Assembly: GCA_025210265.1 (NCBI GenBank)
Contig: JAOASD010000032.1
Location: 72,280 to 136,279 of the forward strand
Direction: 5' to 3'
Source of the DNA: Pelagimonas sp.
GTDB taxonomy: Bacteria; Pseudomonadota; Alphaproteobacteria; Rhodobacterales; Rhodobacteraceae
Length of the DNA: 64,000 bases
The notes beneath the pieces are model-generated. The model saw only the letters and a program-made list of their open reading frames with translations, ran no database searches and had not been told where the DNA came from. Position numbers and translations under genes: made by a program. Below, piece after piece: positions 7,465-63,101 of this stretch (positions are counted from its first letter, which is position 1; each line of letters opens with the position of its first letter).

Positions 7465-7495
7465 GTATGTCTGTCAGGTGCTCTGTCAGGTGCAA

Positions 7496-8221: not shown

Positions 8222-8280
8222 GATGTCCTCCAGAATGAATGGCTTGTCTTGGTAACGTTGTTATCTACTGGCAATCATAA

Positions 8281-8297
8281 GCGCAATATTATTGCGC
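8281..8297. promoter_or_regulatory. 17-bp perfect palindrome GCGCAATA-T-TATTGCGC upstream of phaB
   Basis: Seen directly. It lies 60 bp upstream of the phaB start and downstream of the phaA terminator. Confidence 0.35.
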
Positions 8298-8324
8298 AAA
8301 GAAATTCCGCACTGCGGCGAAATG

Positions 8325-8353
8325 ACAAAAAAAGAGGCGCCCGAGGGCGCCTC
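8325..8353 (-). terminator. Terminator downstream of phaA
   Basis: Stem gaggcgcc / ggcgcctc with loop cgag. On the minus strand it is followed by a T7 run. Confidence 0.8.
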
Positions 8354-8374
8354 AATATGGTGCGATGCCGGGGA

Positions 8375-14977: not shown

Positions 14978-14979
14978 AC

Positions 14980-16179
14980 ATGGTGCGGCTGGACAATGCG
15001 TCGGCGCGGCGGCTGTTTCTGCACGCGCACGCATTGGCCGAGCCGCCGCAAGGCCCCGGCAAAGGGCAGGATCTGCTGGATCTGATCACGCGGTTGGGCT
15101 TTGTCCAGGTTGACAGCGTACGCACGATCGAGCGCGCGCATCACATGATCCTGTTTGCGCGCCGCCCTGCCTATCGGCCACAGGCTCTGGCACCTCTGTT
15201 GGAACGTGACCGAACTCTGTTCGAACAATGGACCCATGATGCGGCAGTGATCCCGACGGCCTTTTACCCCTATTGGCAGCTGCGCTTTGATAAGGGGCGG
15301 GAAAAGCTGCGTGAACGCTGGGAAAAATGGCGGCGCGAAGGCTTTGCCGATAAGTTCGACGCGGTGCTGGACCAGATCCGCGACCACGGCCCCTGCGGAT
15401 CAGCGGATGTCGGCGCGGATGAGGCCCGCAGCAAGGGAGGATGGTGGGATTGGCACCCGTCCAAAACCGCGCTGGAATATCTGTGGCGGGCCGGGGATCT
15501 GGCGGTCTGTCACCGAGAAAATTTCCGCAAGGTCTATGACCTGTCCGACCGGGTGATTCCCGTGGAACACCGCTGGCGCCCAAGCGAAGAGGACAGCGTT
15601 GACTGGCTGTGCCGCGCGGCGCTGGACCGCCTGGGCTTTGCCACGCAGGGCGAGCTGGCGGCGTTCTGGGATACGATTTCACCTGCGCGGGCCGGGATCT
15701 GGGTGAAACAGGCACTGGAACGGGGCGAGATCATCCCGGTCGAGATCGAATTGCACGATGGCAGCTGGCGCAAATCCGTCGCCTATCCCGATATTTTGGA
15801 GCGCATCGCCGCTGCGCCCACGCCGCCGGGGCGGATGCGGGTTCTGTCGCCCTTTGACCCGGCGCTGCGTGACCGCAAACGGGCCGAGCGCCTGTTCGGT
15901 TTTCACTACCGGATCGAGATCTTTGTGCCCGAGGCCAAGCGCGTCTACGGCTATTACGTGTTTCCGCTTCTCGAAGGGGACCGGCTGGTCGGGCGCATCG
16001 ACATGAGCGCGGATCGCAAGGCGGGGGCGCTGGTTGTGCGGGCGCTTTGGCCGGAACGGGGGATCCGCTGGGGACAGGGGAGGCAGGCCCGGCTGGAGGC
16101 CGAGCTGACGCGGGTGCTGCGTTTTGCCGGACTTGAGGAGGTGGTCTGGGAGCCAGGCTGGCTGCGTGAGGCCAAATAG
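14980..16179 (+). CDS. Winged-helix DNA glycosylase-like protein, YcaQ/AlkZ family (DUF1006)
   Basis: 399 aa. RLFLHAHAL...LITRLGFVQVDSVRTIERAHHMILFAR is typical of the family. The ATG lies 2 nt after the LacI stop. Confidence 0.75.
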   Translation: MVRLDNASARRLFLHAHALAEPPQGPGKGQDLLDLITRLGFVQVDSVRTIERAHHMILFARRPAYRPQALAPLLERDRTLFEQWTHDAAVIPTAFYPYWQLRFDKGREKLRERWEKWRREGFADKFDAVLDQIRDHGPCGSADVGADEARSKGGWWDWHPSKTALEYLWRAGDLAVCHRENFRKVYDLSDRVIPVEHRWRPSEEDSVDWLCRAALDRLGFATQGELAAFWDTISPARAGIWVKQALERGEIIPVEIELHDGSWRKSVAYPDILERIAAAPTPPGRMRVLSPFDPALRDRKRAERLFGFHYRIEIFVPEAKRVYGYYVFPLLEGDRLVGRIDMSADRKAGALVVRALWPERGIRWGQGRQARLEAELTRVLRFAGLEEVVWEPGWLREAK

Positions 16180-16183
16180 GCGC

Positions 16184-16254
16184 GGTGGGTTACCCCCCCT
16201 ACGGCACGCCGCGCGCTTTGCGCATCAGGGTAGGGTGGGTCGTTAACCCACCGC
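16184..16254. repeat. REP-like element, family A (paired inverted GGTGGGTT..AACCCACC units flanked by CTAC/GTAG)
   Basis: A degenerate unit ggtgggttaccccccctacgg (16184-16204) and an intact unit gggtagggtgggtcgttaacccaccgcc (16228-16254). Same architecture as 26008-26071. Confidence 0.7.
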
Positions 16255-16263
16255 CACACCGCG

Positions 16264-16968
16264 TCAGACCACTTCGATCACGCTTTTGTCGATCGACAGC
16301 ACATAGCCACGCCGCGCCACGTTTTTCACCAAAAGCGCGCTGACCAGCTGGTTGCCCAACCCGTCACGCAGACGTTTGATCCGCATCGCCCCGGCGCTTT
16401 CTTCGCAATCTGCGGCCTGTTTGCCGGAAATCACCGCTTCGATCTCGGCCCCGCTGAGGATGTCATCATCCATGCGGGCCTCGGCCAGAACCGATAGGGT
16501 TTCCATCAGCGCATCGGTCAGCTTGAACCCCATCGTGTTCAGGTAGACCGTGTTTTCCTGCCGTGAAATCACCAGACTGCTGACCTCGATCCCGGCGCGT
16601 TCGATCTGGGCCATGCGGCGATTCAGACCGACCAGCAGCACCAGAAAGACCAGCGCCGCGACCAGCATGGCCGCCGCAAAGACCAGCAGCACCAGAATCA
16701 CCACCCGGTAGCCCGTCAGCGTGTCGGCAAAGGTGGTGCCCGACTGCGCGAGGATCTCTAGCAGTTTGATTTCCGCCTGGGTGGTCAGGGTGTCATTTTC
16801 CACGAACAGCCGTTCGACCCGCGCATTGAACGCATTGGCATCCGGCAGGGTCAGCATCAGCAGAACACCCGCCCCGATCAGCAGCGTCACGATCGCGCCA
16901 ATGCCCAGTGTCACGATTCGGTTGCCCGAGCGGCGCGTGTCAGAAACGGAGGAAGTAGTCACCGGCAT
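16264..16968 (-). CDS. Membrane-anchored transcriptional regulator with C-terminal OmpR/PhoB-type winged-helix domain
   Basis: 234 aa. Two hydrophobic helices (IVTLGIGAIVTLLIGAGVLLMLTL and VVILVLLVFAAAMLVAALVFLVLLVGL) flank a ~45-aa loop. The C-terminus (FKLTDALMETLSVLAE...MRIKRLRDGLG...VKNVARRGYVL) resembles trans_reg_C. Confidence 0.6.
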   Translation of the reverse strand: MPVTTSSVSDTRRSGNRIVTLGIGAIVTLLIGAGVLLMLTLPDANAFNARVERLFVENDTLTTQAEIKLLEILAQSGTTFADTLTGYRVVILVLLVFAAAMLVAALVFLVLLVGLNRRMAQIERAGIEVSSLVISRQENTVYLNTMGFKLTDALMETLSVLAEARMDDDILSGAEIEAVISGKQAADCEESAGAMRIKRLRDGLGNQLVSALLVKNVARRGYVLSIDKSVIEVV

Positions 16969-17236
16969 TGGCCCTTTGTTGATCCGACGGAGCAGAGGTC
17001 GACAGACCCAGTATATTCAGCAGAACCCAGCCCTGCGCGGCCAGCCGCGATTGCGCATTGCGCTGTGCACGGGCTTTGCCAGGGCAATCGCCGGGCAGGG
17101 CAAGAATGCCGTAATGCAGCCGCAGCGGGCTATCTTGTTTGGCTTTGTATTCCACATAGCACTCCGCATGGGCCGTGCCGGGCGTGACCAGCGAAATCGC
17201 CAGGGAAATTCCGATGATGTGCAACAGATGTCTCAT
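16940..17236 (-). CDS. Small exported protein (signal peptide, two Cys)
   Basis: 98 aa. MRHLLHIIGISLAISLVTPGTAHA then ECYVEYK... Its 3' end overlaps the start of the regulator gene by 29 nt. Confidence 0.5.
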   Translation of the reverse strand: MRHLLHIIGISLAISLVTPGTAHAECYVEYKAKQDSPLRLHYGILALPGDCPGKARAQRNAQSRLAAQGWVLLNILGLSTSAPSDQQRANAGDYFLRF

Positions 17237-17418
17237 GCGATCAAACTGCGCGGGACAGGCTGGAAATTCAATAACAACAGGCGTTTTTGCCGATGTTATC
17301 GATTATCGAGGGGCCGTTATTGCGTGATTTTGCAGGGCGGGGCCAGGGTTTGGGCATGGCTCTGGTCACATGCTGATGGACCGGGGCGCAGGACGCAAAC
17401 CTTATCAGGAGAAACCCC

Positions 17419-17949
17419 ATGTCTGCGAAATTCATCACCGGTATCCTTTGCACTGGCGCTTTGGTTGCGGCGTTGGCAGCGCCGGCCCCGGCCCGCGCCG
17501 ATGATGCCGACACTGCCGCCGCTTTGGTTGGGACGGTGGCTGGTCTATTCATTCTCGGCAAGATCCTTGAGGGGGTCGACAATGACCATGGCTCGGTCCG
17601 GGTGCATCGGGATCACCGGGGGCCGAACTATCGCCACCACCATCACGGTCTGCAAAACGGCCCCGGCCATGCCCACGCCCATGCCACGCCCGGCCACAGC
17701 CATGGGCGCAATGCCAATGATAACCGCGTCTCGCAACGCAAATGGTTGCCCGGTCGCTGCGTGAAAAAGCTGAATGTCAAAGGCGGCGTGCGTGATGTGA
17801 TGCCGCGCTACTGCCTCAAGACCAGCAAGGTGCGGGTCGATACACTGCCCAGCAAATGCATTCATCACTGGAAGGGCAAGAACGGGCACAAGCGTGGTTA
17901 TGCGCTGCGCTGCCTGCAGCGCGATGGCTATCGCATCCGCTGGAACTGA
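17419..17949 (+). CDS. Exported histidine-rich protein with Cys-containing basic C-terminal domain
   Basis: AGGAGA SD. Signal peptide ...AAPAPARA. His tract HRDHRGPNYRHHHHGLQNGPGHAHAHATPGHSHG, and four Cys in the C-terminal 70 aa. 176 aa. Confidence 0.6.
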   Translation: MSAKFITGILCTGALVAALAAPAPARADDADTAAALVGTVAGLFILGKILEGVDNDHGSVRVHRDHRGPNYRHHHHGLQNGPGHAHAHATPGHSHGRNANDNRVSQRKWLPGRCVKKLNVKGGVRDVMPRYCLKTSKVRVDTLPSKCIHHWKGKNGHKRGYALRCLQRDGYRIRWN

Positions 17950-18057
17950 TTGGCAGAACAGTCAGGGGAGGGGGCGCGGCATGACCGCGCCTTTTCTTGT
18001 GTTCGACTGTGCGCGCGCCGTTGCACGTGCCTGCCACAGGCATTATCTGTGGCCCCC

Positions 18058-18537
18058 ATGGCAAAGAAAAAGCAAAAGTCGGACCCCAATTACAAAGTGA
18101 TCGCCGAAAACCGGCGGGCACGTTTTGACTATGCCATCGAGGATGACATCGAATGTGGCGTGATCCTGACCGGGTCCGAGGTCAAATCCCTGCGCGAGAA
18201 CTCTGCCAATGTCGCCGAAAGCTATGCCGCCGTCGAGGATGGCGAGCTGTGGCTGGTGAACTCTTATATCGCGCCGTATGAGCGCGCGATGTTCCCGCAT
18301 ATGGAGCGCCGCCGCCGCAAGCTGCTGGTCTCCAAACGCGAGCTGTCCCGGCTGTGGAACGAAACCCAGCGCAAGGGCATGACGCTGGTGCCCATGGTGC
18401 TGTATTTCAACCATAAGGGCATCGCCAAGCTGAAGATCGGCATCGCCAAGGGCAAAAAGACCGTGGACAAGCGCGCCACGGAGGCCAAGCGCGACTGGAA
18501 TCGCCAGAAACAGCGCCTGCTGAAACAGAACAGCTGA
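18058..18537 (+). CDS. smpB: SsrA-binding protein
   Basis: [29 protein letters not shown]...GSEVKSLR. 159 aa; start trimmed from the ORF-track start at 17950. Confidence 0.93.
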
Positions 18538-20894: not shown

Positions 20895-22334
20895 TCAGAA
20901 AATGAAATCCGCAGCCGAGATCACCTGTCCCACGCCAATATCCGCCGCCGTGTAGCCCTCCAGCAGGATCGAGTTGCTGCCAAAGCTGATCACCGCCCAC
21001 CCCGCCGCCACATCTGCCGACAGATGGTTGGTTGTCAGGTCGTTGAAATCGGTGATTTCGCTCACAGAGGACAGGTCGATCTGTTCGCCATCATTGCTGT
21101 TGAAATCGCGGATCAGGTCATGGCCGCTGTCATCGTCAAAGACGAACTGATCCAGCCCGCTTTGCCCCTGCAATGTGTCATCGCCGTACTCGCCGTTCAG
21201 AGTGTCCGCGCCTTGGCCCCCCTTCATCAGGTCATTTTCAGAGCCGCCCATCAGCAGATCGGCCCCACGCCCCCCGCTAAGCGTATCGGCCCCGGCATCG
21301 CCCTGCAGCTCATCCGCGCCCCGGCCACCGCGCAGATCGTCATTGCCTGTGGAGCCGCGCAACAGGTCGCCCTGATCGCTGCCGGTCAGAATGTCATCAT
21401 AGGCCGAGCCAAGCAGTTGCTCGATCGAGACCAGCTGATCGCCCGCAGCATCCGCGCGCGATCCGGTCCCGGTGCGCAGATTGACTGTCACGCCGCCGCC
21501 GCTGTTTTCATAGCTGGCCATGTCGATCCCATCGCCGCCATTCAGCAGATCGCCCCCGGCATCGCCACGCAGCACATCAAACCCGGCCCCGCCGCGCATC
21601 TCGTCATTGCCGGATCCGCCAAACAGGGTGTCGTCACCAGACCCGCCGCGCAGCGTATCGCGCCCTTCATTGCCGGTCAGGTGATCATGCCCGCCGCGTC
21701 CGCTCAGCGCGTCGCGCCCACCGCCGCCGCCCAGAAAGTTGCCATTGTCGTTGCCCAGCAAAGTGTCATTTTTCTGCGATCCGGCGACAGAGCCCACATT
21801 GACATAGACATCACCCGTGGCGTGACCGCCGGTGATGGTGCCTGCCGCAAGGTCGATATGCACCGCGGTGGGCGAGGTCGTGTAGGCGACAACAGGCGTG
21901 CCCGCGCCGCCCAGAACAAAGGTATCTGCCCCGGCACCGCCCTCAAGAACCACATCGACATTGCCGAACGTGTCGCTGGGCGCCGCAGGAACAGCGGCGT
22001 TCCATTCAAACCGGTCCTGCCCGGCCCCGCCAAACGCCACGATGTTGCTGCCAGACACGGCGATGGTGTCATTGCCACTGCCGCCGTTCAGTACGTTGCT
22101 TTCACTGGAGCCAAAGATCCCACCGGGATCGGTCAGGAAATCATTGCCCGCATCCCCAGACAGCGTGTCCGACCCGGCCCCGCCCGAAAGCCTGTCAGCG
22201 CCCGTATCCCCGATCAGGACGTCATTGCCGTCCAGCCCGTTCAGTGTGTCGCGCCCGCCAAGGCCAAGCAACTGGTCTGCCAGAATGGTGCCATCAAGAC
22301 TGTCATTTCCGCCGGTGCCAAAGAGGATAGGCAT
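20895..22334 (-). CDS. Calcium-binding RTX (hemolysin-type nonapeptide repeat) protein, T1SS-substrate-like
   Basis: 479 aa from MPILFGTGGNDSLDGT (AAGGAA SD). Almost entirely GGxGxDxL/I/F repeats, with no signal peptide. Acidic C-terminal ~80 aa without repeats. Confidence 0.88.
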   Translation of the reverse strand: MPILFGTGGNDSLDGTILADQLLGLGGRDTLNGLDGNDVLIGDTGADRLSGGAGSDTLSGDAGNDFLTDPGGIFGSSESNVLNGGSGNDTIAVSGSNIVAFGGAGQDRFEWNAAVPAAPSDTFGNVDVVLEGGAGADTFVLGGAGTPVVAYTTSPTAVHIDLAAGTITGGHATGDVYVNVGSVAGSQKNDTLLGNDNGNFLGGGGGRDALSGRGGHDHLTGNEGRDTLRGGSGDDTLFGGSGNDEMRGGAGFDVLRGDAGGDLLNGGDGIDMASYENSGGGVTVNLRTGTGSRADAAGDQLVSIEQLLGSAYDDILTGSDQGDLLRGSTGNDDLRGGRGADELQGDAGADTLSGGRGADLLMGGSENDLMKGGQGADTLNGEYGDDTLQGQSGLDQFVFDDDSGHDLIRDFNSNDGEQIDLSSVSEITDFNDLTTNHLSADVAAGWAVISFGSNSILLEGYTAADIGVGQVISAADFIF

Positions 22335-22581
22335 ACTCAATTCCTTTGTCGTTGGTCGCTTATGCAAAATCTGGAGGATAGCGACCAAAATGGCGGTGCT
22401 TTGTCAATGCTTGTGCGGGGAGGCCCGGTATTCTGTAGTGGTAATAGCAGTGGTCCCTGACAGTATTGCCTGCCATCGACCCTGACCTCACGTTCGCACC
22501 CTGACAGCAATGCTTGCAACTGGCGCGTGGGCGGGGCACCTTGTCGGGGTTCCGGTCCGATGAACGCGGAGAAAGATCCCG

Positions 22582-48968: not shown

Positions 48969-48998
48969 GCCCCCGCGCGGGACATCCTGCGCGGGGGC
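48969..48998. terminator. Bidirectional terminator between fadH and the first RTX-propeller gene
   Basis: 10-bp GC stem gcccccgcgc / gcgcgggggc. T-rich on the minus strand (TTTGGTTT), and GTTTC on the plus strand. Confidence 0.7.
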
Positions 48999-49021
48999 GT
49001 TTCAGCCAGATTTGGCTGTGA

Positions 49022-51313
49022 TCAGATGATGTCGTTGATCAGGTCGTTCAGCATCATGTTCTCGATGATGACCCGGCCATCAACACCGAAATCCAGCACC
49101 GCGTCGGCGCCGTTCTGTGTGCCCACGCTGGCCACCAGAGCCGAGACCGAGGCAAAGCCAAGCCCGGCAAGGTCCAGATCCAGTTCGTCAATATTGTCTT
49201 CGAAATCAAGGATGCGCAGCGTGTCATCCCCGATGTTAAAGACAAAATCATCCGACCCGCTGCCGCCGGTGGCCCGGTCGCTGCCTTCGTTGCCAATGAT
49301 CGTATCCGCACCACTGCCGCCATCCAGCGTGTCATTGCCAGTGCCGCCGGTCATGTTGTCCGACCCGTCGCCGCCGATCAGGATGTCCTTGCCAGCTTCG
49401 CCCAGCAGCGTGTCATTGCCGGTGCCGCCATTCAGGCTGTCCCCCCCAGCGCCAGCCTGCAGCAGATCCGCAGCGGACCCGCCAATCAGCGTATCAGCAT
49501 CGTCGCCGCCATAAAGCGCATCGGCATTGGCGCCCCCGATCAGCGTGTCGTTGCCCGCATCCCCATACAGCGTGTCCGCGCCTTTGCCGCCGATCACGCT
49601 GTCATCGCCGTTGCCGCCTCCGACGGCATCATCGCCGGTGCCGCCATCAACGGTGTCATTGCCGCGCTCACCTTCCAGCGAATCATCGCCGCCGCCGCCT
49701 TTCAGCAGGTCATCGGCACGGCCACCACGCAGTGTATCCACGCCCCCGCCGCCGGACAGGGTATCGGTGCCCTGACCGCCGAGCAGATAGTCCAGGCCGC
49801 TGCCGCCCAGCAGGGAATCCTCGCCATGGCCACCGAACAGGGTGTCATCGCCATTGCCACCATTCAGGGTGTCATTCCCGGCCGCACCGGATTGGCTGTC
49901 ATCACCATTGCCGGTGCGGATGTTTTCCGAATTTTCCAGCGATCCAAACACGGTCACATTGGCATCGCCCTGGGTGGTGAAGTTGAAGGCAAAATTGTCG
50001 AGGTGGAATTTGATATCGAACGGCACAGGCAATACGCCAAAATCCACGGTCAGATTGTCCCGCATCACCTGAACAATCTCATCGGTCTCTGAATACAGCC
50101 CCGCATCGGCAAGTGTGATGGTGCTGCCGGCCTCGGCCAGCTCAACCGCGCCTTTGATGGTTTCGCTCATCTCATAGGTCGACCCGTTATAGGCGACCGA
50201 CACGGGCAGATCCAAACGGAAGGCCGAAAACCCATCATCGTTGCGCCCGCCGACATAGACAAACGGGACACCGTCGATATCGACCAGGACCGGTTGAATG
50301 GCGCCAAGCAGTTCCAGCGTGGCATCATCGGCCACGCTGAATACCTCGGTCAGCGATCCGTCGTTGTTGACACGCAGGATCGACACACCACTGTCACTTT
50401 GCCCCGCAACCGTCAGATAATGGATTCCGCCGATCACATCCATCGACATATCATATGCGCCGAACAGTTCCAGCGTGCCTGCATCAAGCAGATTGTCGAT
50501 CCAGACCAGCGATCCATCGCTGCTCATCTCAAAGATGTCGACCCGACTATTGCCGAATTGCGAGACATAGACATATGTGGCACCGTTGATTTGCGCGGTT
50601 TTGACGTTCTCAGCTGAAAAGAACCCCGAGTCCGCGTCATCCGCAAAGTCGAACGTGCTGGTCAACAAACCGTCCGCGCCGATTTCAAAAACTGACAGAC
50701 CGGTGTCTAACTCGGCCACAGCCAGCAAAAAGGTCTTGGCCCCGATTGTGACGGTGGTCAGATCAATGACCCCGCTTAGATAGGTTGAAACGGTGTCATC
50801 GACATTCTGAAGATTGACAAGGACACCCCCGTCTGTCACACGAAAGACCGAGATCCCGCTATCGTCGTACCCGGCTGTGTACATATACACATTCCCGTTC
50901 GAGAGCTCGATTGTTTCGATCCGAAAGACCCCGTTCAGGTTCAGCGTCGCGGTATCGCTCAGATGGTTGCGTGCTTCCAGGGTGCCGTCATTGTTGATCT
51001 CAAACAGGGAAATGCCATCATCACTGAAGCCGGGCACAGCCAGCATTGGCGTGCCGTTGACCTCAAAGAAATGCGGATTGGCCGCGCCTAACAGTTCGTA
51101 CACGGCGTCGTCGCTGTCCTGAATGGTCTGGATCAGGGTCGGCGTCCCGTCGCTGGCCAACTGATAGACATTGAGCGCATTGCTAAAGCGGCCAGAGATG
51201 TACAGGTAATTTGTGCCCCCGATATTTGCCTTGGCAATGCCTTCGACGGCATCCAGCAGAGCGCCATCATCGCCATTCATCACATTGGCGACACTCACAA
51301 GATTTGCAGACAT
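49022..51313 (-). CDS. RTX exoprotein paralogue 1: N-terminal 7-fold beta-propeller-like repeats, RTX Ca-binding repeats and a T1SS-type C-terminus
   Basis: 763 aa with no signal peptide. Seven units of the type YLYxxGxxDxGISVFxIxxDGTL, about 25 GGxGxD nonapeptides, and a C-terminal DDFVF...LNDLINDII. Confidence 0.85.
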   Translation of the reverse strand: MSANLVSVANVMNGDDGALLDAVEGIAKANIGGTNYLYISGRFSNALNVYQLASDGTPTLIQTIQDSDDAVYELLGAANPHFFEVNGTPMLAVPGFSDDGISLFEINNDGTLEARNHLSDTATLNLNGVFRIETIELSNGNVYMYTAGYDDSGISVFRVTDGGVLVNLQNVDDTVSTYLSGVIDLTTVTIGAKTFLLAVAELDTGLSVFEIGADGLLTSTFDFADDADSGFFSAENVKTAQINGATYVYVSQFGNSRVDIFEMSSDGSLVWIDNLLDAGTLELFGAYDMSMDVIGGIHYLTVAGQSDSGVSILRVNNDGSLTEVFSVADDATLELLGAIQPVLVDIDGVPFVYVGGRNDDGFSAFRLDLPVSVAYNGSTYEMSETIKGAVELAEAGSTITLADAGLYSETDEIVQVMRDNLTVDFGVLPVPFDIKFHLDNFAFNFTTQGDANVTVFGSLENSENIRTGNGDDSQSGAAGNDTLNGGNGDDTLFGGHGEDSLLGGSGLDYLLGGQGTDTLSGGGGVDTLRGGRADDLLKGGGGDDSLEGERGNDTVDGGTGDDAVGGGNGDDSVIGGKGADTLYGDAGNDTLIGGANADALYGGDDADTLIGGSAADLLQAGAGGDSLNGGTGNDTLLGEAGKDILIGGDGSDNMTGGTGNDTLDGGSGADTIIGNEGSDRATGGSGSDDFVFNIGDDTLRILDFEDNIDELDLDLAGLGFASVSALVASVGTQNGADAVLDFGVDGRVIIENMMLNDLINDII

Positions 51314-51328
51314 GGTTTTTCCCTACCC

Positions 51329-53629
51329 TTAAATAATATCGTTGATGAGGCTGGCCAAAGTCGTGTTTTCGACAATGATGCGGCCATCGACCCCGAAATC
51401 CAGCACCGCATCGGCGCCGTTCTGTGTGCCCACACTGGCCACCAATGCCGAGACCGAGGCAAAGCCAAGCCCGGCAAGGTCCAGATCCAGCTCATCAACA
51501 TTGTCTTCGAAATCGAGGATGCGCAGCGTGTCGTCCCCGTTGTTGAACACAAAATCATCCGATCCTGTGCCACCCGTAACGCGGTCGCTGCCGGTACCGC
51601 CAGTCAGGGTATCATTACCCGACCCGCCATCCATCGTGTCATTGCCGCTTTCGCCCAGCATGATGTCGGCGCCATCGCCACCCAGCAGGATGTCTTTGCC
51701 TGCGCCACCGGTCATGCTGTCCCCACCCGCGCCGCCGGACAGGCTGTCGCCGCCCGCATCGCCGAGCATCTCATCCGCGGCCGCGCCCCCGACCAGTGTG
51801 TCCGCGCCTTCGCCGCCCTCCATATAGTCGGCATTCGCCCCGCCATTCAGGCTGTCATTGCCGTCGCCACCGAGCAGCGTGTCAGAATGCCGACCGCCCG
51901 ACAGCACGTCATCGCCGTTTTCGCCCAGCAGGAGGTCATCGCCATTGCCGCCGGTCAGCGTGTCTTTGCCACGCTCGCCGGTCAGGGCATCGTCCCCGCC
52001 GCCGCCGGACAGGCTGTCATCCGCGCGCCCCCCATAAAGCGTATCCGCGCCGCCATTGCCCCACAGGGTATCGGTGCCCTGACCGCCATCCAGCGTGTCG
52101 CTGCCGGAACTGCCGCTCAGCTGGTCCAGCCCGTGACCGCCAAAGATCAGGTCATTGCCCTTGCCCGCATTCACCGTGTCATCCCCGCCCGAGGCGACAA
52201 TCGTGTCATCGCCATCGCCGGTGCGGATGTCTTCGGAATTGATCCCATCGCCATGGACCAGCACGGATTTATGACCAGTGGTGGTGAAATTGTAGGCAAA
52301 GCCTTCGAGGTCAAAGCGCACCGCGCCGTCAATCGTGTCATTGCCGAAATTGACCCGGATATTGTCCTGATCCACCACAGCGGTGTCACTGGTTTCGGAA
52401 TAGATCGCGGAATGCAGGACCGAAATCACCGCGCCCCCCGGTGCATCGCGCATCAGCCCGGCAAAGGTTTCGCCCGTGTCATAGGTCACGCCATTGTAGC
52501 TGGCCGCCAGGGGCATATCGATGCGAAAACTCGAGATCCCGTTGTCGGTAAACCCTGTGCCAAACAGATAGGTAAACCCATCAATCCGCATGAAATCGAG
52601 GCCCGAGGCCTCGTTCAAATTCACCGTGGAATCATCCTGAATGGACCGCACGTGGACCAGACTGCCGTCAGAGTCGATACGGAACAGGGTGATGCCGTCA
52701 TCAATATATCCCGACACCCCCAGGTAATCCTGCCCACCAATCCGCACAGGCTCTGCGATGAAAGCGCCGCTCAACTCGGTCGATGAATTGTCCCCGATGC
52801 TGTCAATGTAGCGCAGGCCGCCGCTGGCAGTGACCTCGAACACCGACACGCCGTCGTCGTTATATCCGGTCGCATAGACATAAGTACCGGTTTCGGTGCT
52901 GACCACCGCACCGTCAAAATTGCTGTCCATCAGGTAATTGCCATTCTGGCTATCCCGGACATGGGACAGGGCGGTCAGCGTGCCGTCACTTTCGATACGG
53001 AACACCGAAAACCCGTCATCACCGTTCCCGCCAATCACCATGTAGCGGGTTCCGGCGATCTCGAAAGGTTCAATGTAATAGGGGTTGTCGATGTTCAGCG
53101 TGCCGGTGTCCTGAATGTTCTGAACATTGCCGATGATTGACCCTGCCGCGCTGAGGCGGAACACCGAGACGCCCGAATCCGTCGTGCCGCCAACGTACAA
53201 AAAGGTGGTGCCGTCGATTTCCACCGTATTCATGGTTAACGCGCCATCCAGTTCCAACGAGACGGTGTCAAACGCGCTTCCGGCCAATTCCAGCGTGCCG
53301 TCATTGTTGATCTGAAACACCGCCACGCGATCGCTTGATCCGCCGGCAACGCTCAGAAAAGGCTTGCCCTCGATTTCAAACACATGGACCTGAGTGGCGC
53401 TGAACAGGGCGTAGTTCGGATCGTCGGTGGCCAGCAGAGTCTGGATGTCCGTCAGGGTGCCATCCGCGCCGACCTCAAACGCAACCAAAGAGTTGGAGTT
53501 CAGGCTCACCGCATAAAGAAAGCTGCGATCAGCGATCTGGACAGTGTTGACGCCATAGGCCCCAGATATGGCCAGGCCGGGATGGGTTGTTATGGAAACA
53601 TTGTCGGTGTTGAAAAAATTGATGCTCAT
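51329..53629 (-). CDS. RTX exoprotein paralogue 2 (same architecture)
   Basis: 766 aa. AAAAGGA SD. Its stop lies 15 nt upstream of the paralogue 1 start. Seven blade-like units, RTX repeats and the same C-terminal domain. Confidence 0.85.
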   Translation of the reverse strand: MSINFFNTDNVSITTHPGLAISGAYGVNTVQIADRSFLYAVSLNSNSLVAFEVGADGTLTDIQTLLATDDPNYALFSATQVHVFEIEGKPFLSVAGGSSDRVAVFQINNDGTLELAGSAFDTVSLELDGALTMNTVEIDGTTFLYVGGTTDSGVSVFRLSAAGSIIGNVQNIQDTGTLNIDNPYYIEPFEIAGTRYMVIGGNGDDGFSVFRIESDGTLTALSHVRDSQNGNYLMDSNFDGAVVSTETGTYVYATGYNDDGVSVFEVTASGGLRYIDSIGDNSSTELSGAFIAEPVRIGGQDYLGVSGYIDDGITLFRIDSDGSLVHVRSIQDDSTVNLNEASGLDFMRIDGFTYLFGTGFTDNGISSFRIDMPLAASYNGVTYDTGETFAGLMRDAPGGAVISVLHSAIYSETSDTAVVDQDNIRVNFGNDTIDGAVRFDLEGFAYNFTTTGHKSVLVHGDGINSEDIRTGDGDDTIVASGGDDTVNAGKGNDLIFGGHGLDQLSGSSGSDTLDGGQGTDTLWGNGGADTLYGGRADDSLSGGGGDDALTGERGKDTLTGGNGDDLLLGENGDDVLSGGRHSDTLLGGDGNDSLNGGANADYMEGGEGADTLVGGAAADEMLGDAGGDSLSGGAGGDSMTGGAGKDILLGGDGADIMLGESGNDTMDGGSGNDTLTGGTGSDRVTGGTGSDDFVFNNGDDTLRILDFEDNVDELDLDLAGLGFASVSALVASVGTQNGADAVLDFGVDGRIIVENTTLASLINDII

Positions 53630-53715
53630 GGACGTGGTCCTTTTTGCCTGATGCGCAAAGCGCGTGGCGAGATGTCAGACCCCGGCGGCGGGCGCGCGGC
53701 CCGGCCAGCGCGGGC

Positions 53716-56010
53716 TTAAATGATGTCGTTGATCAGATCACCCAGCTGGGTGTTTTCGATGATGATCACGCCGTCGACGCCGAAATCCAGCACCGCATTG
53801 GCGCCGTTCTGCGTGCCGACCAGCGACACCAGCTGCGTGACCGAGGCAAAGCCAAGCGCCACAAGGTCAAGGTCGATCTGGTCCACATCGTCTTCGAAAT
53901 CGAGAACCCGGTCCGTGCCATCGCCGATCTCGAACACAAAATCATCCGATCCCGCGCCACCGGTTAGCCGGTCATTGCCGGTGCCACCCCGAAGCTGGTC
54001 ATTGCCATCGCCGGCATCCAGCGTGTCATTGCCGCTATCGCCCAGCAGCGTGTCGGCACCGCTGCCACCCAGCAGCCGGTCCTTGCCGGAGCCGCCTGCG
54101 ACATAGTCATTGCCCGTGTCGCCATTCAGCGTGTCCGCGCCCGCGCCACCGGCCAGCGTATCCGACGCTGATCCGCCATCCAGCAGGTCCGCGCCCTCGC
54201 CACCGTCTATCAGGTCGCTATTGGCGTCGCCGGTCAGGCTGTCATTGCCTTCGCCGCCAAACAGTTGGTCGGCCCCGTCGCCACCAAATATGCTGTCATC
54301 GCCAGAGGCACCAAAGATGAAATCATTGCCTGTGCCGCCGACCAGAATGTCTTTGCCGCGCTCGCCCAGCAGCGTGTCATTGCCGGTGCCGCCGGTCAGG
54401 GAATCATCCGACCGCCCTCCGTGCAGGCTGTCGTTACCGCCTTCGCCATGGATCGTATCAGCGCCCTGACCGCCAAAGCCCGTATCCGTCCCGCTGTCCA
54501 GCATGACCAGATCATTGCCATGGCCCGCCTTGACCAGATCATCGCCGCGATTGCTGTTCAGCGTGTCATTGCCCGCTGCGCCAAAAATCACGTCATCGCC
54601 ATAGCCCGTGCGGATGTTTTCCGAATTGATGCCCGACCCAATCACCCGCACCGCGCCATCGCCGCTGGTGGTGAAATTGAAGGCAAAATCATCCAGATGG
54701 AAATCCAGCTGGGCTCCGGTGTCGCCCAGCTCCAGCCGGATATTGTCCTGCGTGACGGAAACGGATTCGCGGCTCACGTCATAATCCATCGGCGCGACCA
54801 TTTCGATCCGCGTGCCGCCCGGCGCGTTCTCCAGCAGTCCTGCGATGGTTTCGCCCGTGCCAAACAAATTGCCGTTGTACGAGGCCTGCAACGGCATATC
54901 CATGCGAAAGACCGAAACGCCATTGCTGTTAAAACCACTGACAATCAGATGCGGGATATTGTCCAGAACAACAAAGGTGCTGGAGGTTGTAGCCAGCAGA
55001 TTTCTGGGTGCCGCATGATTGACCGAGTCAAGTTCGGTCAGCATGCCGTCCTCTTCGACCCGAAACAGGGAAAAGCCGCTCTCTGACTGAGACACCACCG
55101 ACAGATAAGAGGTGCCGTTGACCTCAAAGGTGCTGCTGCGCCAGATCATGCCCAAATTCAGGCCGGTGGTATCCGCAACCGGGCCGATATGGCTCAGCGT
55201 GCCGTTCGGGTGCAGTTCGAAAATCGACAGGCCATTGTCATTAAGCCCGCCTGCATACAAAAACGTGCCAGCCGATGTCTGCGCAACGGACAGGGAATAC
55301 TGCCCGTTCATCAGGTATGCGGCATTTTCGCTGTCGCGCACATTGTCGGTATTGGTCAAAGTGCCATCGAAATTGACGCGGAACACCGAAAACCCTTCAT
55401 CGGTGGTGCCCCCGGAAATGACAAAATGCGTGCCGCCGATCTCGACGGTTTCCATGTAAAAGGGAAACAGGATGTTCAGCGTCGGCGAGTCTCCGATATT
55501 CTGGACATTGCTGTTGATGGTGCCATTGTCATTCATGGCAAAGACGCTGATCCCGTGATCGTCTAGCCCGGCCACATACAGATAGGTCGTCCCGCCGATC
55601 TCGACCGAGGTCATGTCAATGGCGCCGTCCAGTTCATAAAGGCCTGCATCGGGCACGATCTGGGTGATCTCAAGCGTGCCATCATTGTTGACCCGAAAGA
55701 TCGTGATCCCGTCATCATCCCGGCCAGAGGCCACAAGGAACGGCTCCCCGTTGATTTCCATTGGGTGGATGTAATTGATCCGGTCCAGCTCATAGGTTGG
55801 GTCGTCGCTGTCATTAAAGACCTGTAGCGCCGTCAGCGACCCGTTTGTGGCGATTTCATAGGCGGACAGGCGGTCAATGGTCACGGCAGAGACATACAGA
55901 AAGCTGCGCGTGCCGACCTGAATGGTTTCGATGGAAAACGGGACATTTAACGGCAGCGTGGTGTCGTTGAAAACATCCGGGTTCTGCGTATTGACGAGGG
56001 AGAGGCCCAT
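53716..56010 (-). CDS. RTX exoprotein paralogue 3 (same architecture)
   Basis: 764 aa from MGLSLVNTQNPDVF (AAGGAA SD). The 44-aa upstream extension of the ORF-track call was rejected. Confidence 0.82.
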   Translation of the reverse strand: MGLSLVNTQNPDVFNDTTLPLNVPFSIETIQVGTRSFLYVSAVTIDRLSAYEIATNGSLTALQVFNDSDDPTYELDRINYIHPMEINGEPFLVASGRDDDGITIFRVNNDGTLEITQIVPDAGLYELDGAIDMTSVEIGGTTYLYVAGLDDHGISVFAMNDNGTINSNVQNIGDSPTLNILFPFYMETVEIGGTHFVISGGTTDEGFSVFRVNFDGTLTNTDNVRDSENAAYLMNGQYSLSVAQTSAGTFLYAGGLNDNGLSIFELHPNGTLSHIGPVADTTGLNLGMIWRSSTFEVNGTSYLSVVSQSESGFSLFRVEEDGMLTELDSVNHAAPRNLLATTSSTFVVLDNIPHLIVSGFNSNGVSVFRMDMPLQASYNGNLFGTGETIAGLLENAPGGTRIEMVAPMDYDVSRESVSVTQDNIRLELGDTGAQLDFHLDDFAFNFTTSGDGAVRVIGSGINSENIRTGYGDDVIFGAAGNDTLNSNRGDDLVKAGHGNDLVMLDSGTDTGFGGQGADTIHGEGGNDSLHGGRSDDSLTGGTGNDTLLGERGKDILVGGTGNDFIFGASGDDSIFGGDGADQLFGGEGNDSLTGDANSDLIDGGEGADLLDGGSASDTLAGGAGADTLNGDTGNDYVAGGSGKDRLLGGSGADTLLGDSGNDTLDAGDGNDQLRGGTGNDRLTGGAGSDDFVFEIGDGTDRVLDFEDDVDQIDLDLVALGFASVTQLVSLVGTQNGANAVLDFGVDGVIIIENTQLGDLINDII

Positions 56011-56294
56011 GAGAATTCCTTCTGGAATAACCGCCTGACGGAGGAGCGTGAAAATAAACTGACCCAGCGTAACACAAAACGGACATTCAGGTTGAATATT
56101 TTGTGTCCGAAAGATGGGGATGGGACAGGCAGGCCCTGTCAATTTTGACTGTCTGCGGGGCGGGTGCGCCTGACGTTTCCATCGCGCAAACGATCGGTCG
56201 AAAACCCCGATATTGTCCGAAGCCTGTCCAAATGCTGCCTTGATTGAGCAGCAGATATGATCCTCAAGAACGGATTACGAAAAGGTCGTCAGAC

Positions 56295-57200
56295 ATGGAT
56301 CGCCTCACGGAAATGGAAGCCTTTGCAACGGTTGTAGACCAGGGCGGCTTCACCGATGCTGCCAAGAAAATGGGCATCTCCAAATCCGCTGTCTCCAAAC
56401 ATGTGTCCTCGCTTGAGGCCCGTCTGGGCGCGCGCCTGCTGAACCGCACCACGCGTCGCGTCAGCCCGACCGAGATCGGCCTGGCCTATTACGACCGCGC
56501 CCGCCGCGTGTTGAATGACGCAGGCGAGGCCGACGCGCTGGTGACCTCGATGCAATCCGCGCCCTCGGGCCTGCTGCGCATTTCGGTGGCGACGGATTTT
56601 GGCGTGAACCACCTGTCGCCCGAGCTGGGGGATTTCCTGGCGGAATTCCCGGACATCACCGTCAACATGGTGCTGAACAACCGCTATGTGGAGCTGATCA
56701 GCGAAGGCTTTGACATGGCGATCCGCATTGGCGAGCTGGAAGACAGCACACTGCGCGCCCGCAAGCTGACCGACACGACCAAACGCATGATCGCCTCGCC
56801 GCGCTATTTCGAACAATATGGCCGTCCGCAGCGCATCGACGATCTGAACGAACATAAGCTGCTGCATTATTCCAACCAGTCCGCAGGCAGTGTCTGGAAG
56901 CTGACCGCCCCGTCGGGCGAAAAGCGTCAGGTGCGCACGGCGGGCTGGCTGACGGTGAATGATGGCCAGTCGCTGATGAACGCCTGTATCGCCGGTCTGG
57001 GCATCGCCTATCTGCCCTCTTACCTTTATCACGACGCGATGGAGCAGGGGCTGGTCGAGGATGTGATCCCCGATCTGCCGGTCGAAACCCAGGGCATTTA
57101 CGCGGTCTACCCGCCGGGCCGCTTTACCCAGCCCAAGGTCCGCGCTTTCATTGATTTCCTCGTGCATGCCTTTGCCGAAAAAGGCCCGCATGAGTGGTGA
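56295..57200 (+). CDS. LysR-family transcriptional regulator
   Basis: MDRLTEMEAFATVVDQGGFTDAAKKMGISKSAVSKHVSSLEARLGARLLNRTTR. 301 aa. Divergent from RTX paralogue 3. Confidence 0.9.
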   Translation: MDRLTEMEAFATVVDQGGFTDAAKKMGISKSAVSKHVSSLEARLGARLLNRTTRRVSPTEIGLAYYDRARRVLNDAGEADALVTSMQSAPSGLLRISVATDFGVNHLSPELGDFLAEFPDITVNMVLNNRYVELISEGFDMAIRIGELEDSTLRARKLTDTTKRMIASPRYFEQYGRPQRIDDLNEHKLLHYSNQSAGSVWKLTAPSGEKRQVRTAGWLTVNDGQSLMNACIAGLGIAYLPSYLYHDAMEQGLVEDVIPDLPVETQGIYAVYPPGRFTQPKVRAFIDFLVHAFAEKGPHEW

Positions 57201-57284: not shown

Positions 57285-58259
57285 TTATTCGGTGGAAATC
57301 AGCACCGCCTCGACCCGACGGTTCAGGCGGCGGCCCGCTTCGGTCAGGTTGCTGGCCAAGGGGGCAAGGAAACCGGCCCCTTCGGCGCTGATCTGATCGG
57401 CAGGAATGTCATGCCTGTCGCGCAGATAGGTCACGGCGGCGCGGGCGCGCTGCAGCGACACGCGCTGGTTGGCCTCAAGACTGCCGGTGGCATCGGTATG
57501 GCCGACAAACATCACCCGGCGCGTCGGGTTCTGACGCAGATAAGCGGCCAGCTGGTCCAGACTGTCGACCGGGCCGGGGGTCAGTGCGCTGGCACCGCTG
57601 GCAAAGCGCATATCGCGCAGCACCGCATGGCCGGTTTCTTCCAGCTGCAGATCAATCGGACCCTGCGCTGTGTCGGGCAAAGGGTGGGGCAGCCCCGGCA
57701 GCGCGGCATCGGTGGTTTCGCCGGGAAACGGGCCTTCGCCCCCGGCGCGGATGATCTGCAGATAGGCCGAGGTCGCATCGCGGCTGGCCAGCAGCGCCAC
57801 CGCGCGCCCATCGGGCGAAACCGCCGAAATCGCGTGGAAATCGCTGAGATCGACAAACATTTCCGGCGCCGGCAGCACCAGTGTGTCAAAATGGAAATCA
57901 AACCCGCCACAGGCGCGGTCGATGCAATCCAGCAGGATCTGGAAATCCGCATTGGCCAGCTGTTCGCGCAACGGGTCAATCAGCTGCAATGGCGTCAGCC
58001 CCGATCCCTCAATACGCCAGGCCTGCACCAGCACGCGGCCCTCGAACCGGCGCTTGGCCACGCCGCGATCTTCGTGCCAGGGGGCGATGGGCAGGTCATA
58101 GGCCCCGATCTGACGGGCAACTTGCGCGCTGCGGTCCGCCCCCGCGGGCAGAGCCAGATCCTGCGCCGCGCCCGCGCCCGCCATCACAGCAAGCAGCGCA
58201 GCACAAAAGGGCAGGGCGATCCGGGCGCGCTTAGCGGAACTGGGCGTGGTATTCGTCAT
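57285..58259 (-). CDS. OmpA-family (OmpA_C/peptidoglycan-binding) exported protein
   Basis: 324 aa. Signal peptide ...LLAVMAGAGAAQ. C-terminal OmpA-like motif VGHTDATGSLEANQRVSLQRARAVTYL...NRRVE. Confidence 0.82.
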   Translation of the reverse strand: MTNTTPSSAKRARIALPFCAALLAVMAGAGAAQDLALPAGADRSAQVARQIGAYDLPIAPWHEDRGVAKRRFEGRVLVQAWRIEGSGLTPLQLIDPLREQLANADFQILLDCIDRACGGFDFHFDTLVLPAPEMFVDLSDFHAISAVSPDGRAVALLASRDATSAYLQIIRAGGEGPFPGETTDAALPGLPHPLPDTAQGPIDLQLEETGHAVLRDMRFASGASALTPGPVDSLDQLAAYLRQNPTRRVMFVGHTDATGSLEANQRVSLQRARAAVTYLRDRHDIPADQISAEGAGFLAPLASNLTEAGRRLNRRVEAVLISTE

Positions 58260-60405: not shown

Positions 60406-61110
60406 ATGCGCTTTCAAACCGATCTGATCCCCGCCACGCTGATCCGCCGCTACAAACGCTTTCTGGCCGATTGTGTGCTGGAGGATGGGCGCGAAATCAC
60501 CGCCCATGTGGCCAATCCGGGGTCGATGCTGGGGTTAAAAGACGAAGGCCTGCGCATCTGGCTGGAGCCCAACGACGACCCCAAACGCAAACTGAAATTC
60601 GCCTGGCGGCTGGTGGAACATCCCGGCCCGCATTTCACCGGGGTCGACACGGCCATCCCGAACAAAGTGCTGCGCGCGGCGCTGATGGCAGGCGAAGTAC
60701 CGGGGCTGCAAGGCTATGATCTGGTCCGCCCCGAGGTCAAATACGGCGAAAACAGCCGCATTGATTTCCTGCTGACCAGCGCAACCCGCCCCGATTGCTA
60801 TGTCGAGGTCAAATCCATGACCCTGTCCCGCCAGCCCGGCCTGGGCGAATTTCCCGACAGCGTCACAGCACGCGGCACAAAACACCTGATTGAGCTGGCC
60901 AATATGGCCCGCGCTGGCCACCGCGCCGTGCTGCTCTTCCTCGTGCAGCGCACAGACATCACCCAAACAACCCTGGCTGCCGATATCGACCCGACCTATG
61001 CCACAGCCTTTGATCAGGCCCGCGCCGCCGGTGTCGAAACTCTGGCCTTTGGCTGCAACATCACCCCGCAGGGCATCACGCTGGGCGCGCAGCTTCCCTT
61101 CGCACAATAG
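60406..61110 (+). CDS. sfsA: Sugar fermentation stimulation protein homologue (DNA-binding/nuclease fold)
   Basis: MRFQTDLIPATLIRRYKRFLADCVLEDGREITAHVANPGSM. 234 aa. Confidence 0.9.
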   Translation: MRFQTDLIPATLIRRYKRFLADCVLEDGREITAHVANPGSMLGLKDEGLRIWLEPNDDPKRKLKFAWRLVEHPGPHFTGVDTAIPNKVLRAALMAGEVPGLQGYDLVRPEVKYGENSRIDFLLTSATRPDCYVEVKSMTLSRQPGLGEFPDSVTARGTKHLIELANMARAGHRAVLLFLVQRTDITQTTLAADIDPTYATAFDQARAAGVETLAFGCNITPQGITLGAQLPFAQ

Positions 61111-61143
61111 AAAAAGGGCAACGCCCGCGCGCCGCCCTTCCTG

Positions 61144-61210
61144 TTTCCTCTTGGTCAAAATACCTCCGGGGGAGCGCCAAAGGCGCGGGGGCCGAGCCCC
61201 CAACCCCGGC
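61144..61210. repeat. Family B 3'-end repeat
   Basis: Core cctcttggtcaaaatacctccggggg (61147-61172), followed by the hairpins gcgccaaaggcgc and gggggccgagccccc. It lies between the convergent sfsA and ppaC genes. Confidence 0.7.
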
Positions 61211-61215
61211 TGCAA

Positions 61216-62270: not shown

Positions 62271-63071
62271 CTATGAACAGTGTTTTTTGGCGTAGGTCGC
62301 CAGGGCCCTCGCAAAGTCCTTTGCTGCCGTCATATCAGCCAGCTGAAGTGAAATCGGCGCAGGCGAAACGATGGCCCCGGTGAGCAAACTGTCGGACTGT
62401 GGCGCATTCCCAAGATAGGTCAATGTCATCGCAAAGTTCATTTCGGCGTCATTGGTTAACAATGATTGCGCGAACCGATGAAAGGCTGGGGCATCCTTGT
62501 GCGGGCGCGGAGCGTCCCAATTCCCATTCTCATCCTGTGTCAGCAGCGTCGACAACTGGAAACTGAGGCGCTGGCCGGGCGTTTTCAGGATTTCCGCGAT
62601 CTCCTTGCGACGCGTGGTCTTGTCCATCGCAGCGAAATCTTTGGGTGCTTCTGTAATTTGCCCGCCGGAATTTGGGAGTAAAGTCAAACTCCCCTTCCGC
62701 GAAGGGATGTCAGAGGGCACACTGCCCGCGACCCCCATCACCTGAGTGATCAGGCTGGAGGAGCGTGTCTTATGCTGTGCCGTATAGTATGTTTTGCCGT
62801 TAGGGGCTGGTTTCAGATTGATCTGGTGCAGAATATAGTGACCCAGATTGAGGCGCAGAACACTGTGTTGAAAACTGCCGCTGTCCATTGCGGAAATCCT
62901 GGAGCGTATGGACAAATCGCACCCAGACAGCGCGACATCTGCTTCGGCACTCTCTGGCAGGGAGGTCTTGAATGCCGCGACGATGTGATCTGCATCACTG
63001 TCCTTGGCAACCCAGTATGCCGCCGCGCCAATCACGCATATCGACATGGCGACGAGAAAAGCTCTTTTCAT
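62271..63071 (-). CDS. Hypothetical exported protein (no recognised family)
   Basis: MKRAFLVAMSICVIGAAAYW signal/anchor sequence, about 266 aa. Lower G+C than its neighbours (hand count of 62761-62880 gives about 48%). Confidence 0.5.
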   Translation of the reverse strand: MKRAFLVAMSICVIGAAAYWVAKDSDADHIVAAFKTSLPESAEADVALSGCDLSIRSRISAMDSGSFQHSVLRLNLGHYILHQINLKPAPNGKTYYTAQHKTRSSSLITQVMGVAGSVPSDIPSRKGSLTLLPNSGGQITEAPKDFAAMDKTTRRKEIAEILKTPGQRLSFQLSTLLTQDENGNWDAPRPHKDAPAFHRFAQSLLTNDAEMNFAMTLTYLGNAPQSDSLLTGAIVSPAPISLQLADMTAAKDFARALATYAKKHCS

Positions 63072-63101
63072 CAAAATACCCAAATAGACGTTTCTGAAAG
63101 T

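Follow-up and report, generated by a model that had tools for sequence, protein, structure and literature searches.

What do three consecutive genes that join a β-propeller to a long block of RTX repeats do for Pelagimonas sp.? In roseobacters, a dominant marine group, no secreted proteins are more abundant than the RTX-like ones, and almost none of these has a known function. We analyzed a 64,000-nucleotide (nt) stretch of the Pelagimonas sp. assembly GCA_025210265.1 (contig JAOASD010000032.1, positions 72,280 to 136,279), here called the window, in which positions 49022 to 56010 hold three co-oriented minus-strand genes, A, B, and C. They encode paralogs of 763, 766, and 764 residues that share one architecture: a seven-bladed propeller of ~370 residues, a linker of ~95 residues, 26 RTX nonapeptides, and an acidic tail of 75 residues. 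The answer we favor, held with about even confidence, is that A, B, and C are type-I-secreted, Ca2+-folded binding proteins with three specificities and count among the abundant, uncharacterised RTX-like roseobacter exoproteins. The locus is a clean, well-modeled case, with a defined propeller head, three old paralogs, and divergence mapped to the top-face loops. That divergence makes the hypothesis of secreted binders with distinct specificities testable.

Architecture and predicted fold of the three proteins

The open reading frames agree in length, strand, and spacing (15 nt between A and B, 86 nt between B and C) with those given in a preliminary description made from the sequence alone. 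The genes and their parts are as follows.

49022–51313, minus strand: gene A, last in the array, 763 residues (open reading frame list, Pfam, sequence comparison)
50207–51313: gene A propeller, residues 1–369
49916–50206: gene A linker, residues 370–466
49214–49915: gene A RTX block, residues 467–700
49022–49213: gene A tail plus stop
51329–53629, minus strand: gene B, middle of the array, 766 residues (open reading frame list, Pfam, AlphaFold2 models)
52514–53629: gene B propeller, residues 1–372
52223–52513: gene B linker, residues 373–469
51521–52222: gene B RTX block, residues 470–703
51329–51520: gene B tail plus stop
53716–56010, minus strand: gene C, first in the array, 764 residues from the ATG (open reading frame list, Pfam, sequence comparison)
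54901–56010: gene C propeller, residues 1–370
54610–54900: gene C linker, residues 371–467
53908–54609: gene C RTX block of 26 nonapeptides, residues 468–701
53716–53907: gene C acidic tail plus stop

Protein B is identical to N4A53_15235 of a Pelagimonas sp. metagenome-assembled genome. The reading frame of gene C stays open upstream of the ATG, to a TTG at 56142. The ATG start is supported because the resulting N-terminus is colinear with those of A and B and an AAGGA motif lies 8 nt upstream.

Both the architecture and the fold are directly supported. Profile hidden Markov model (HMM) searches, one of the checks suggested in the preliminary description, detected HemolysinCabind (PF00353; E 3e-41 to 2e-48) and Lactonase (PF10282; 36.9, 41.5, and 34.7 bits against a gathering threshold of 21.7; E 1e-8 to 1e-10) in all three proteins. 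The repeat block, first put at about 25 nonapeptides, consists of exactly 26 per protein in a single uninterrupted register, with Asp at nonapeptide position 6 in 26/26, 26/26, and 25/26 units. The linker contains the ASYNG.TY..GET motif reported for it (residues 372–466 in B). It has neither a Pfam match nor a separate fold match, and apart from A, B, C, and their orthologs it occurs in a single further protein, P0143. The tail, described correctly as acidic and ending in LINDII, carries 15–16 acidic (D/E) and 1–2 basic (K/R) residues over its 75 positions. Basic residues are scarce throughout (24–27 per ~765 residues in each protein), and Pfam detected no Ig-like or extender domains in A, B, or C.

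The full-length AlphaFold2 model of B, built from a 62-sequence alignment, has a mean predicted local distance difference test (pLDDT) score of 92.7. Residues 24–371 contribute 27 strands to seven four-stranded blades (DSSP on the model and blade alignment), with the N-terminal strand 4–12 serving as the fourth strand of blade 7 and closing the propeller. The seven blade units recognized earlier by eye are therefore visible both in the sequence and in the predicted structure. The linker segment (372–470) is modeled as β-rich with one helix, at lower confidence (pLDDT 75–86). Residues 470–700 form a regular parallel β-roll with pLDDT 95–98 across the repeats, followed by a tail of short strands and helices. 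A second model, covering residues 372–766, scored pLDDT 90.5. Foldseek matched this C-terminal half to the RTX blocks of CyaA, the PML/Pseudomonas and Serratia lipases, serralysins, and AlgE R-modules.

Probable export and the shared tail

No N-terminal signal peptide was found in A, B, or C, as had been described: the opening residues lack basic or hydrophobic character and belong to a propeller strand. Since this strand closes the propeller in the model, the N-terminus cannot be a cleaved signal peptide. At the other end, conservation among the paralogs peaks in the tail, and A and B are 98 % identical over alignment columns 700–750. The near-identity of the A and B tails is kept at the protein level, as predicted for a shared secretion signal. 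Other Pelagimonas RTX proteins follow the same tail logic, carrying a D.IDL box and finishing in Asp plus hydrophobic residues. Taken together, the analysis leads us to infer strongly that A, B, and C are exported by a type I secretion system (T1SS).

Similar properties have been reported for roseobacter exoproteomes. RTX-like proteins predominate in them, and these carry no signal peptide, are poor in basic residues, and lack linked transporter genes (PMC2953401, PMC3933643, PMC5489592). The examples described there (R. pomeroyi YP_165496 and YP_165625, Phaeobacter ZP_02147451, and Nautella italica EEB69465) share with A, B, and C the C-terminal RTX repeats, a serralysin-like tail, the lack of a signal peptide, the paucity of basic residues, a location away from transporter operons, and the lack of a known function. 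No propeller head is reported for them (the words "propeller" and "lactonase" are absent from all three papers), whereas the array proteins have a defined seven-bladed head and are encoded by a tandem triplication. A second comparison group comprises the serralysin and lipase passengers (AprA, PrtC, PML, and LipA) and the AlgE R-modules, which share the GGxGxDxUx β-roll. This group also shares the order of a functional head followed by RTX repeats, and the uncleaved acidic C-terminus ending in Asp plus hydrophobic residues. In contrast, the head of A, B, and C is a propeller rather than a metzincin, lipase, or β-helix. Their RTX block, at 26 uninterrupted repeats, is much longer and is preceded by the subfamily-specific 95-residue linker.

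These features suggest the following route. The proteins would be exported unfolded, C-terminus first, by a T1SS encoded elsewhere in the genome, which would recognize the conserved, uncleaved, acidic 75-residue tail with its final Asp plus hydrophobic residues. Outside the cell, the 26 nonapeptides would bind Ca2+ and form the long β-roll, and this would drive and stabilize folding of the remaining protein. The N-terminal propeller would then act as the functional head, most likely as a non-catalytic binding module. Its ligand may be a glycan or protein exposed on algae, animal hosts, particles, or other microbes, and recognition would take place on the top face and channel rim built by the D-to-A and B-to-C loops. 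Old paralogs that differ mainly in these top-face loops would thereby provide three specificities.

Could the RTX block instead mark A, B, and C as pore-forming cytotoxins of the HlyA/CyaA/LtxA type? The nonapeptide block gives partial matches to the NCBIfam models RTX_toxin and EhxA, and the Joint Genome Institute (JGI) uses the name "Ca2+-binding RTX toxin-like protein". These matches reach 105–131 bits against cutoffs of 1000–2000 (1000 for RTX_toxin), however, and cover the repeats only. The N-terminal 370 residues are a soluble propeller with no hydrophobic pore-forming domain, and neither acyltransferase (rtxC/hlyC-like) nor transporter genes flank the array. We consider this explanation extremely improbable, and it is effectively refuted by the domain content. 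Other NCBIfam matches, also far below threshold, were to the serralysin C-terminal region, the SMc04171 Ca-repeat protein, and the EglC tail.

A fourth, unrelated RTX protein is encoded in the window at 20895–22388 on the minus strand (497 residues, PF00353 E 3e-44). It has no propeller, and its tail is of a different subtype, ending in AADFIF. Together, this gene and the array place several T1SS-type passengers within 35 kb of each other.

Binding or catalysis: fold relatives, conservation, and divergence

The preliminary description likened the blades to the lactonase/YVTN style and could not assign them to a named family. The likeness was borne out by the PF10282 matches. A named family was thus reached, but at the level of the repeat only and without a known function. 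The matched stretches are partial: A residues 193–324 align with profile positions 202–330, B residues 144–273 with positions 2–122, and C residues 55–172 with positions 223–334. Because the matches are partial and differ in register in each paralog, they reflect a generic blade motif and not colinear homology to an enzyme. The PF10282 proteins used for comparison (YbhE/Pgl of E. coli, 1RI6; Klebsiella Pgl, 6NAU; lp_2219 of L. plantarum, 3HFQ; PpgL of P. aeruginosa, 6IGB; and Neurospora CMLE, 1JOF) likewise have seven four-stranded blades. They also share with A, B, and C a blade motif consisting of a hydrophobic strand, an Asp-Gly turn, (I/V)SVF, and DG.L. However, the PF10282 enzymes are single-domain proteins of ~340 residues that are cytoplasmic or periplasmic, whereas the propellers of A, B, and C are fused to an RTX export module.

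The closest fold match of the propeller in the PDB was the EPTP domain of human LGI1 (5Y2Z, 9KZC; E 2.6e-15), with a template modeling (TM) score of 0.83–0.84 over ~330 residues, a root-mean-square deviation of 3.5 Å, and 9–11 % identity (Foldseek, TM values normalized to the target). The PF10282 enzymes superposed less well, with TM scores of 0.75 for YbhE/Pgl, 0.70 for Klebsiella Pgl, 0.66 for lp_2219, and 0.60 for both CMLE and PpgL; WD40 proteins were also among the lesser matches. The LGI1 EPTP domain has seven four-stranded blades, the last completed by an N-terminal strand; ADAM22 is bound at the channel rim, a Ca2+ ion sits in the central channel, and the domain is secreted and non-enzymatic (PMC5906670). 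LGI1 differs from A, B, and C in being a metazoan protein with a leucine-rich repeat domain and disulfides, whereas A, B, and C contain no cysteine. With the Pfam EPTP model (PF03736), B reached 22.1 bits against a threshold of 21 without a significant single stretch, C scored 14.1 bits, below threshold, and A gave no match. By sequence, the propeller belongs to the PF10282 group at the blade-repeat level only, but its modeled shape is nearer to that of a non-enzymatic receptor-binding propeller. This structural link between bacterial "lactonase" propellers and the EPTP domain of the epilepsy protein LGI1 is a modest point for domain evolution.

A bolder interpretation would make the propeller a bacterial counterpart of the metazoan EPTP/EAR receptor-binding domain, part of a large, overlooked prokaryotic family of secreted "ligands" that bridges Pgl-type and EPTP folds, and would make the array a toolkit for recognizing a host or partner instead of a set of enzymes or toxins. 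We regard this as distinctly improbable. If it were true, roseobacters would export a diversifying three-member propeller set through a T1SS to recognize surface molecules of algal or animal hosts.

We also considered the six-bladed Ca2+-dependent lactonases (SMP30/SGL PF08450, PON, Drp35, and CJ1041C), which are defined by invariant Ca2+-binding E/N/N/D channel residues (PMC13578688). They were rejected as relatives: the model has seven blades, and no PF08450 match was found at E <= 0.1.

Conservation within the family bears directly on the choice between binding and catalysis. In the 62-sequence family alignment, every column that is at least 60 % conserved belongs to one motif recurring in all seven blades, which includes one Asp per B-C loop and one Asp starting each D-A loop. 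The alignment shows no conserved polar residue that is confined to one blade, which speaks against an asymmetric active site and hence for binding over catalysis. Strand A, which lines the channel, varies most among the paralogs, with 4/59 residues invariant. The recurring Asp residues form a ring of up to 14 on the top face (two per blade), partly lost from blades 1 and 2 in the window proteins; they might be structural caps or extra Ca2+ sites.

The company kept by the propeller offers a further line of evidence. Many family members found by a deep HMM search are 2000–5000 residues long and carry several propeller copies each. Some of these giant proteins pair the propeller with Big_12, cadherin, and RTX domains; FG-GAP/VCBS, FN3, Hint, or dockerin modules occur in other homologs. 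This association with adhesin-type modules is typical of extracellular binding and adhesion and supports a binding head.

Secreted enzymes are the principal rival explanation. The propeller would then be a catalytic PF10282 lactonase or cycloisomerase acting outside the cell on sugar lactones, algal exudates, or signaling lactones, with three substrate ranges, and the RTX block would serve only for export and folding. All three proteins score above the PF10282 gathering threshold; YbhE/Pgl-type proteins are nearest among PDB sequences; Pgl, CMLE, and PpgL are among the fold matches; many homologs are named "6-phosphogluconolactonase (cycloisomerase 2 family)" by JGI; and an enzyme head followed by RTX repeats is the classic layout of T1SS proteases and lipases. 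Nevertheless, A, B, and C reach only 27–30 bits with the 6-phosphogluconolactonase equivalog model of NCBIfam (NF008258), far below its cutoff of 370. The partial, register-shifted Lactonase matches, the lack of family-wide blade-specific polar residues, the poor conservation of strand A, the adhesin-type company, and the closer fold of the non-enzymatic EPTP propeller all point away from catalysis. We consider the enzyme explanation unlikely.

The pattern of divergence among the paralogs also fits a binding role. Identity among A, B, and C is 46–50 % overall, 25–50 % in the first 400 residues, and 55–70 % in the repeat block, and saturation of synonymous sites indicates that the duplications are old. 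In the top-face (B-C and D-A) loops, 15/100 positions are invariant among the paralogs, compared with 16/46 in the bottom loops (15 % vs 35 %, p = 0.009). Gene conversion was rejected as the source of the similar A and B tails. Third-codon-position identity in the tails (0.72–0.77) is barely above the gene-wide range (0.5–0.7), and exact nucleotide matches extend to 44 nt at most.

A 13-kb metagenome contig (L001) with 96 % nucleotide identity carries the same array and the same fadH, EamA, desaturase, helix-turn-helix (HTH), aldo-keto reductase, and major facilitator superfamily (MFS) neighbors, and allowed selection to be estimated by the Nei-Gojobori method. The ratio of nonsynonymous to synonymous substitution rates (dN/dS, omega) was 0.25, 0.135, and 0.05 for the three genes, indicating purifying selection and functional array genes. 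In the propeller half, omega was 0.27–0.34, which is 5–8 times that of the flanking genes (0.04–0.06). Positive selection was not supported, since these raised values are still below 1. Recent amino-acid substitutions, relative to L001, are enriched in the B-C/D-A loops of gene A (28/100 vs 37/268 elsewhere, p = 0.002) and gene B (8/100 vs 4/268, p = 0.004). Because variation is concentrated in the top-face loops, the idea of three specificities, raised in the preliminary description, gains indirect support, and the loop enrichment would fit diversification of a ligand-binding face. Gene A (3698–5989 in L001) also has a synonymous divergence of 0.26, about three times the 0.08–0.13 of B, C, and the flanking genes, which suggests that recombination has replaced its allele with one from a more distant lineage.

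Several points weigh against secreted binders. Relaxed constraint on surface loops would give the same faster change, and omega is below 1. When repeat proteins are aligned, a shift by a whole blade is possible and can mask blade-specific conservation, and no usable residue-level definition of the Pgl/YbhE catalytic residues was found in the searchable literature. A profile search against PDB sequences favored 3hfq (E 3e-8), YbhE (2e-5), and Pgl (5e-4), with LGI1 sub-threshold at 0.1; the order of relatives by sequence is the reverse of that by fold, with Pgl-type enzymes or structural-genomics proteins nearer by profile and LGI1 nearer by fold. Finally, no T1SS genes (ABC transporter, membrane fusion protein, or TolC-like) were present among the open reading frames of the 64-kb window scanned against Pfam, as the preliminary description had implied in placing the system elsewhere. 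They were never found next to the more distant propeller-RTX homologs either (Algicella, Oceanicella, another Pelagimonas, P0072, and P0143). Linkage of T1SS genes to a substrate gene is not required.

Distribution of the family and surroundings of the array

The fusion of a propeller to an RTX block had been singled out as an unusual layout, and this was not upheld. At least 30 of 87 homolog matches combine PF10282 with PF00353, and such fusions are common in marine Alphaproteobacteria. The deep HMM search placed the propeller family in 3558 clusters at 50 % identity, 497 of them at E <= 1e-30, and distant copies occur on 31 roseobacter or rhizobial plasmids. Homologs are annotated as "beta-propeller fold lactonase family protein", "calcium-binding protein", or "RTX toxin-like". 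Propeller-RTX proteins are a widespread, uncharacterised class, common in marine Alphaproteobacteria, and not a new kind of system. The interpretation in the preliminary description, which put the array forward as a candidate uncharacterised secreted system, was otherwise largely right. The locus reveals no new secretion mechanism and no new class of system. What is novel locally is the tandem triplication, the subfamily-specific linker, the EPTP-like fold, and the pattern of top-face variation. PF27112, which is listed for most homologs, was rejected as the defining family: the match is a "faint" one to YrzR_Zn_ribbon and was disregarded as spurious.

Comparative genomics, another check suggested at the outset, showed that the triplication is kept in L001, whereas the more distant homologs named above are single-copy and lie in unrelated neighborhoods. 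Of the layout, only the triplication is thus lineage-specific, and no partner gene is conserved. Scans of genome and metagenome collections by sequence pattern gave only 3 and 2 distant loci, and the contexts of the homologs come from exact-protein look-ups.

The frequency of the propeller family in giant, repetitive, surface-type proteins raises the alternative that, instead of diffusing away, A, B, and C stay on the cell after T1SS export as S-layer-like, biofilm-matrix, or RTX-adhesin proteins that form or connect a surface layer. Among the fold matches of the C-terminal half, RsaA, the S-layer protein of Caulobacter, is weakly represented, and an OmpA-family gene lies close by at 57285–58259. 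The RsaA match is marginal, however (E about 1e-2, TM below 0.32), and no neighboring gene is conserved across homologs. Giant RTX adhesins such as LapA and MpIBP have an N-terminal retention module and long arrays of Ig-like extenders. Some distant members of the propeller family do have this layout, but A, B, and C, at ~765 residues, have no retention module, extender repeats, or anchoring domain, and their N-terminus is buried as a propeller strand. Their size (~80 kDa) and layout are like those of released T1SS passengers. A structural role at the cell surface thus seems improbable to us, and secreted binding proteins remain the reading we prefer.

Two related loci are worth recording. In an uncultured Pelagimonas sp. 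(GCA_947498515.1, 1–22031 of locus L002), at least eight consecutive RTX exoprotein genes adjoin glycosyltransferase and phosphomannomutase genes and include a subtilisin(S8)-RTX fusion and a 676-residue propeller-RTX protein. Their products have nearly identical ~70-residue tails ending in (G/S/D)D(L/F)IL, a tail class other than that of the array. A 577-kb plasmid of Rhizobium sp. RCAM05350 (CP087975.1, locus L012) encodes at 14830–18078 a 1082-residue "hypothetical protein" with several propeller copies; its gene adjoins an outer-membrane β-barrel gene, and tblastn found five places in the record.

On its downstream side, the array is followed by a convergent fadH-like reductase gene and then by genes for EamA, a desaturase, an HTH regulator, an aldo-keto reductase, and an MFS transporter. 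On the other side lie a divergent LysR regulator gene, the OmpA-family gene, and genes for CMD, GNAT, CinA-like, and DHH proteins. The features that may bear on transcription are as follows.

56244–57200, plus strand: LysR-family regulator gene, divergent (HTH_1 plus LysR_substrate, Pfam)
56011–56243, no strand assigned: intergenic region common to gene C and the LysR gene, 233 bp, presumed promoter/operator
56072–56079 and 56099–56106: perfect 8-nt inverted repeat ACACAAAA/TTTTGTGT, 62–96 nt upstream of the gene C ATG
48969–48983, minus strand: terminator-like GC hairpin plus T-rich tail, 39 nt downstream of the gene A stop, between A and the fadH-like gene

The inverted repeat is part of a nested dyad at 56072–56106, ACACAAAA-T-ATTCA-ACC-TGAAT-GTCCG-TTTTGTGT, with an inner dyad ATTCA-N3-TGAAT, and looks like an operator. 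As a guess, the LysR protein regulates the array, for which it is a candidate by position only. A sigma-70 scan found no sigma-70-like promoter upstream of gene C. The 15-nt gap between B and A contains a purine-rich stretch, GGGTAGGGAAAAACC, ahead of the gene A ATG, which argues for co-transcription, so that A is probably transcribed together with B. The hairpin at 48969–48983 is the probable end of the transcription unit. The argument for it is its position, as the count of terminator-like sites is not above the shuffled expectation. When the array and its upstream region were scanned against Rfam, the sole match was a sub-threshold one to P6, on this hairpin.

Elsewhere in the window, three open reading frames at 7277–9493 (plus strand), 60535–61215 (minus strand), and 62271–63083 (minus strand) have coding-like G+C content at third codon positions (GC3) and no Pfam match at E <= 1e-5; one of the encoded proteins has 738 residues. 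The array itself has a G+C content of 0.575–0.585 against 0.61–0.64 in its flanks, and a GC3 (49000–56000) of 0.69–0.72 against 0.76–0.80. These lower values could reflect an Asp/Asn/Thr-rich composition or a foreign origin.

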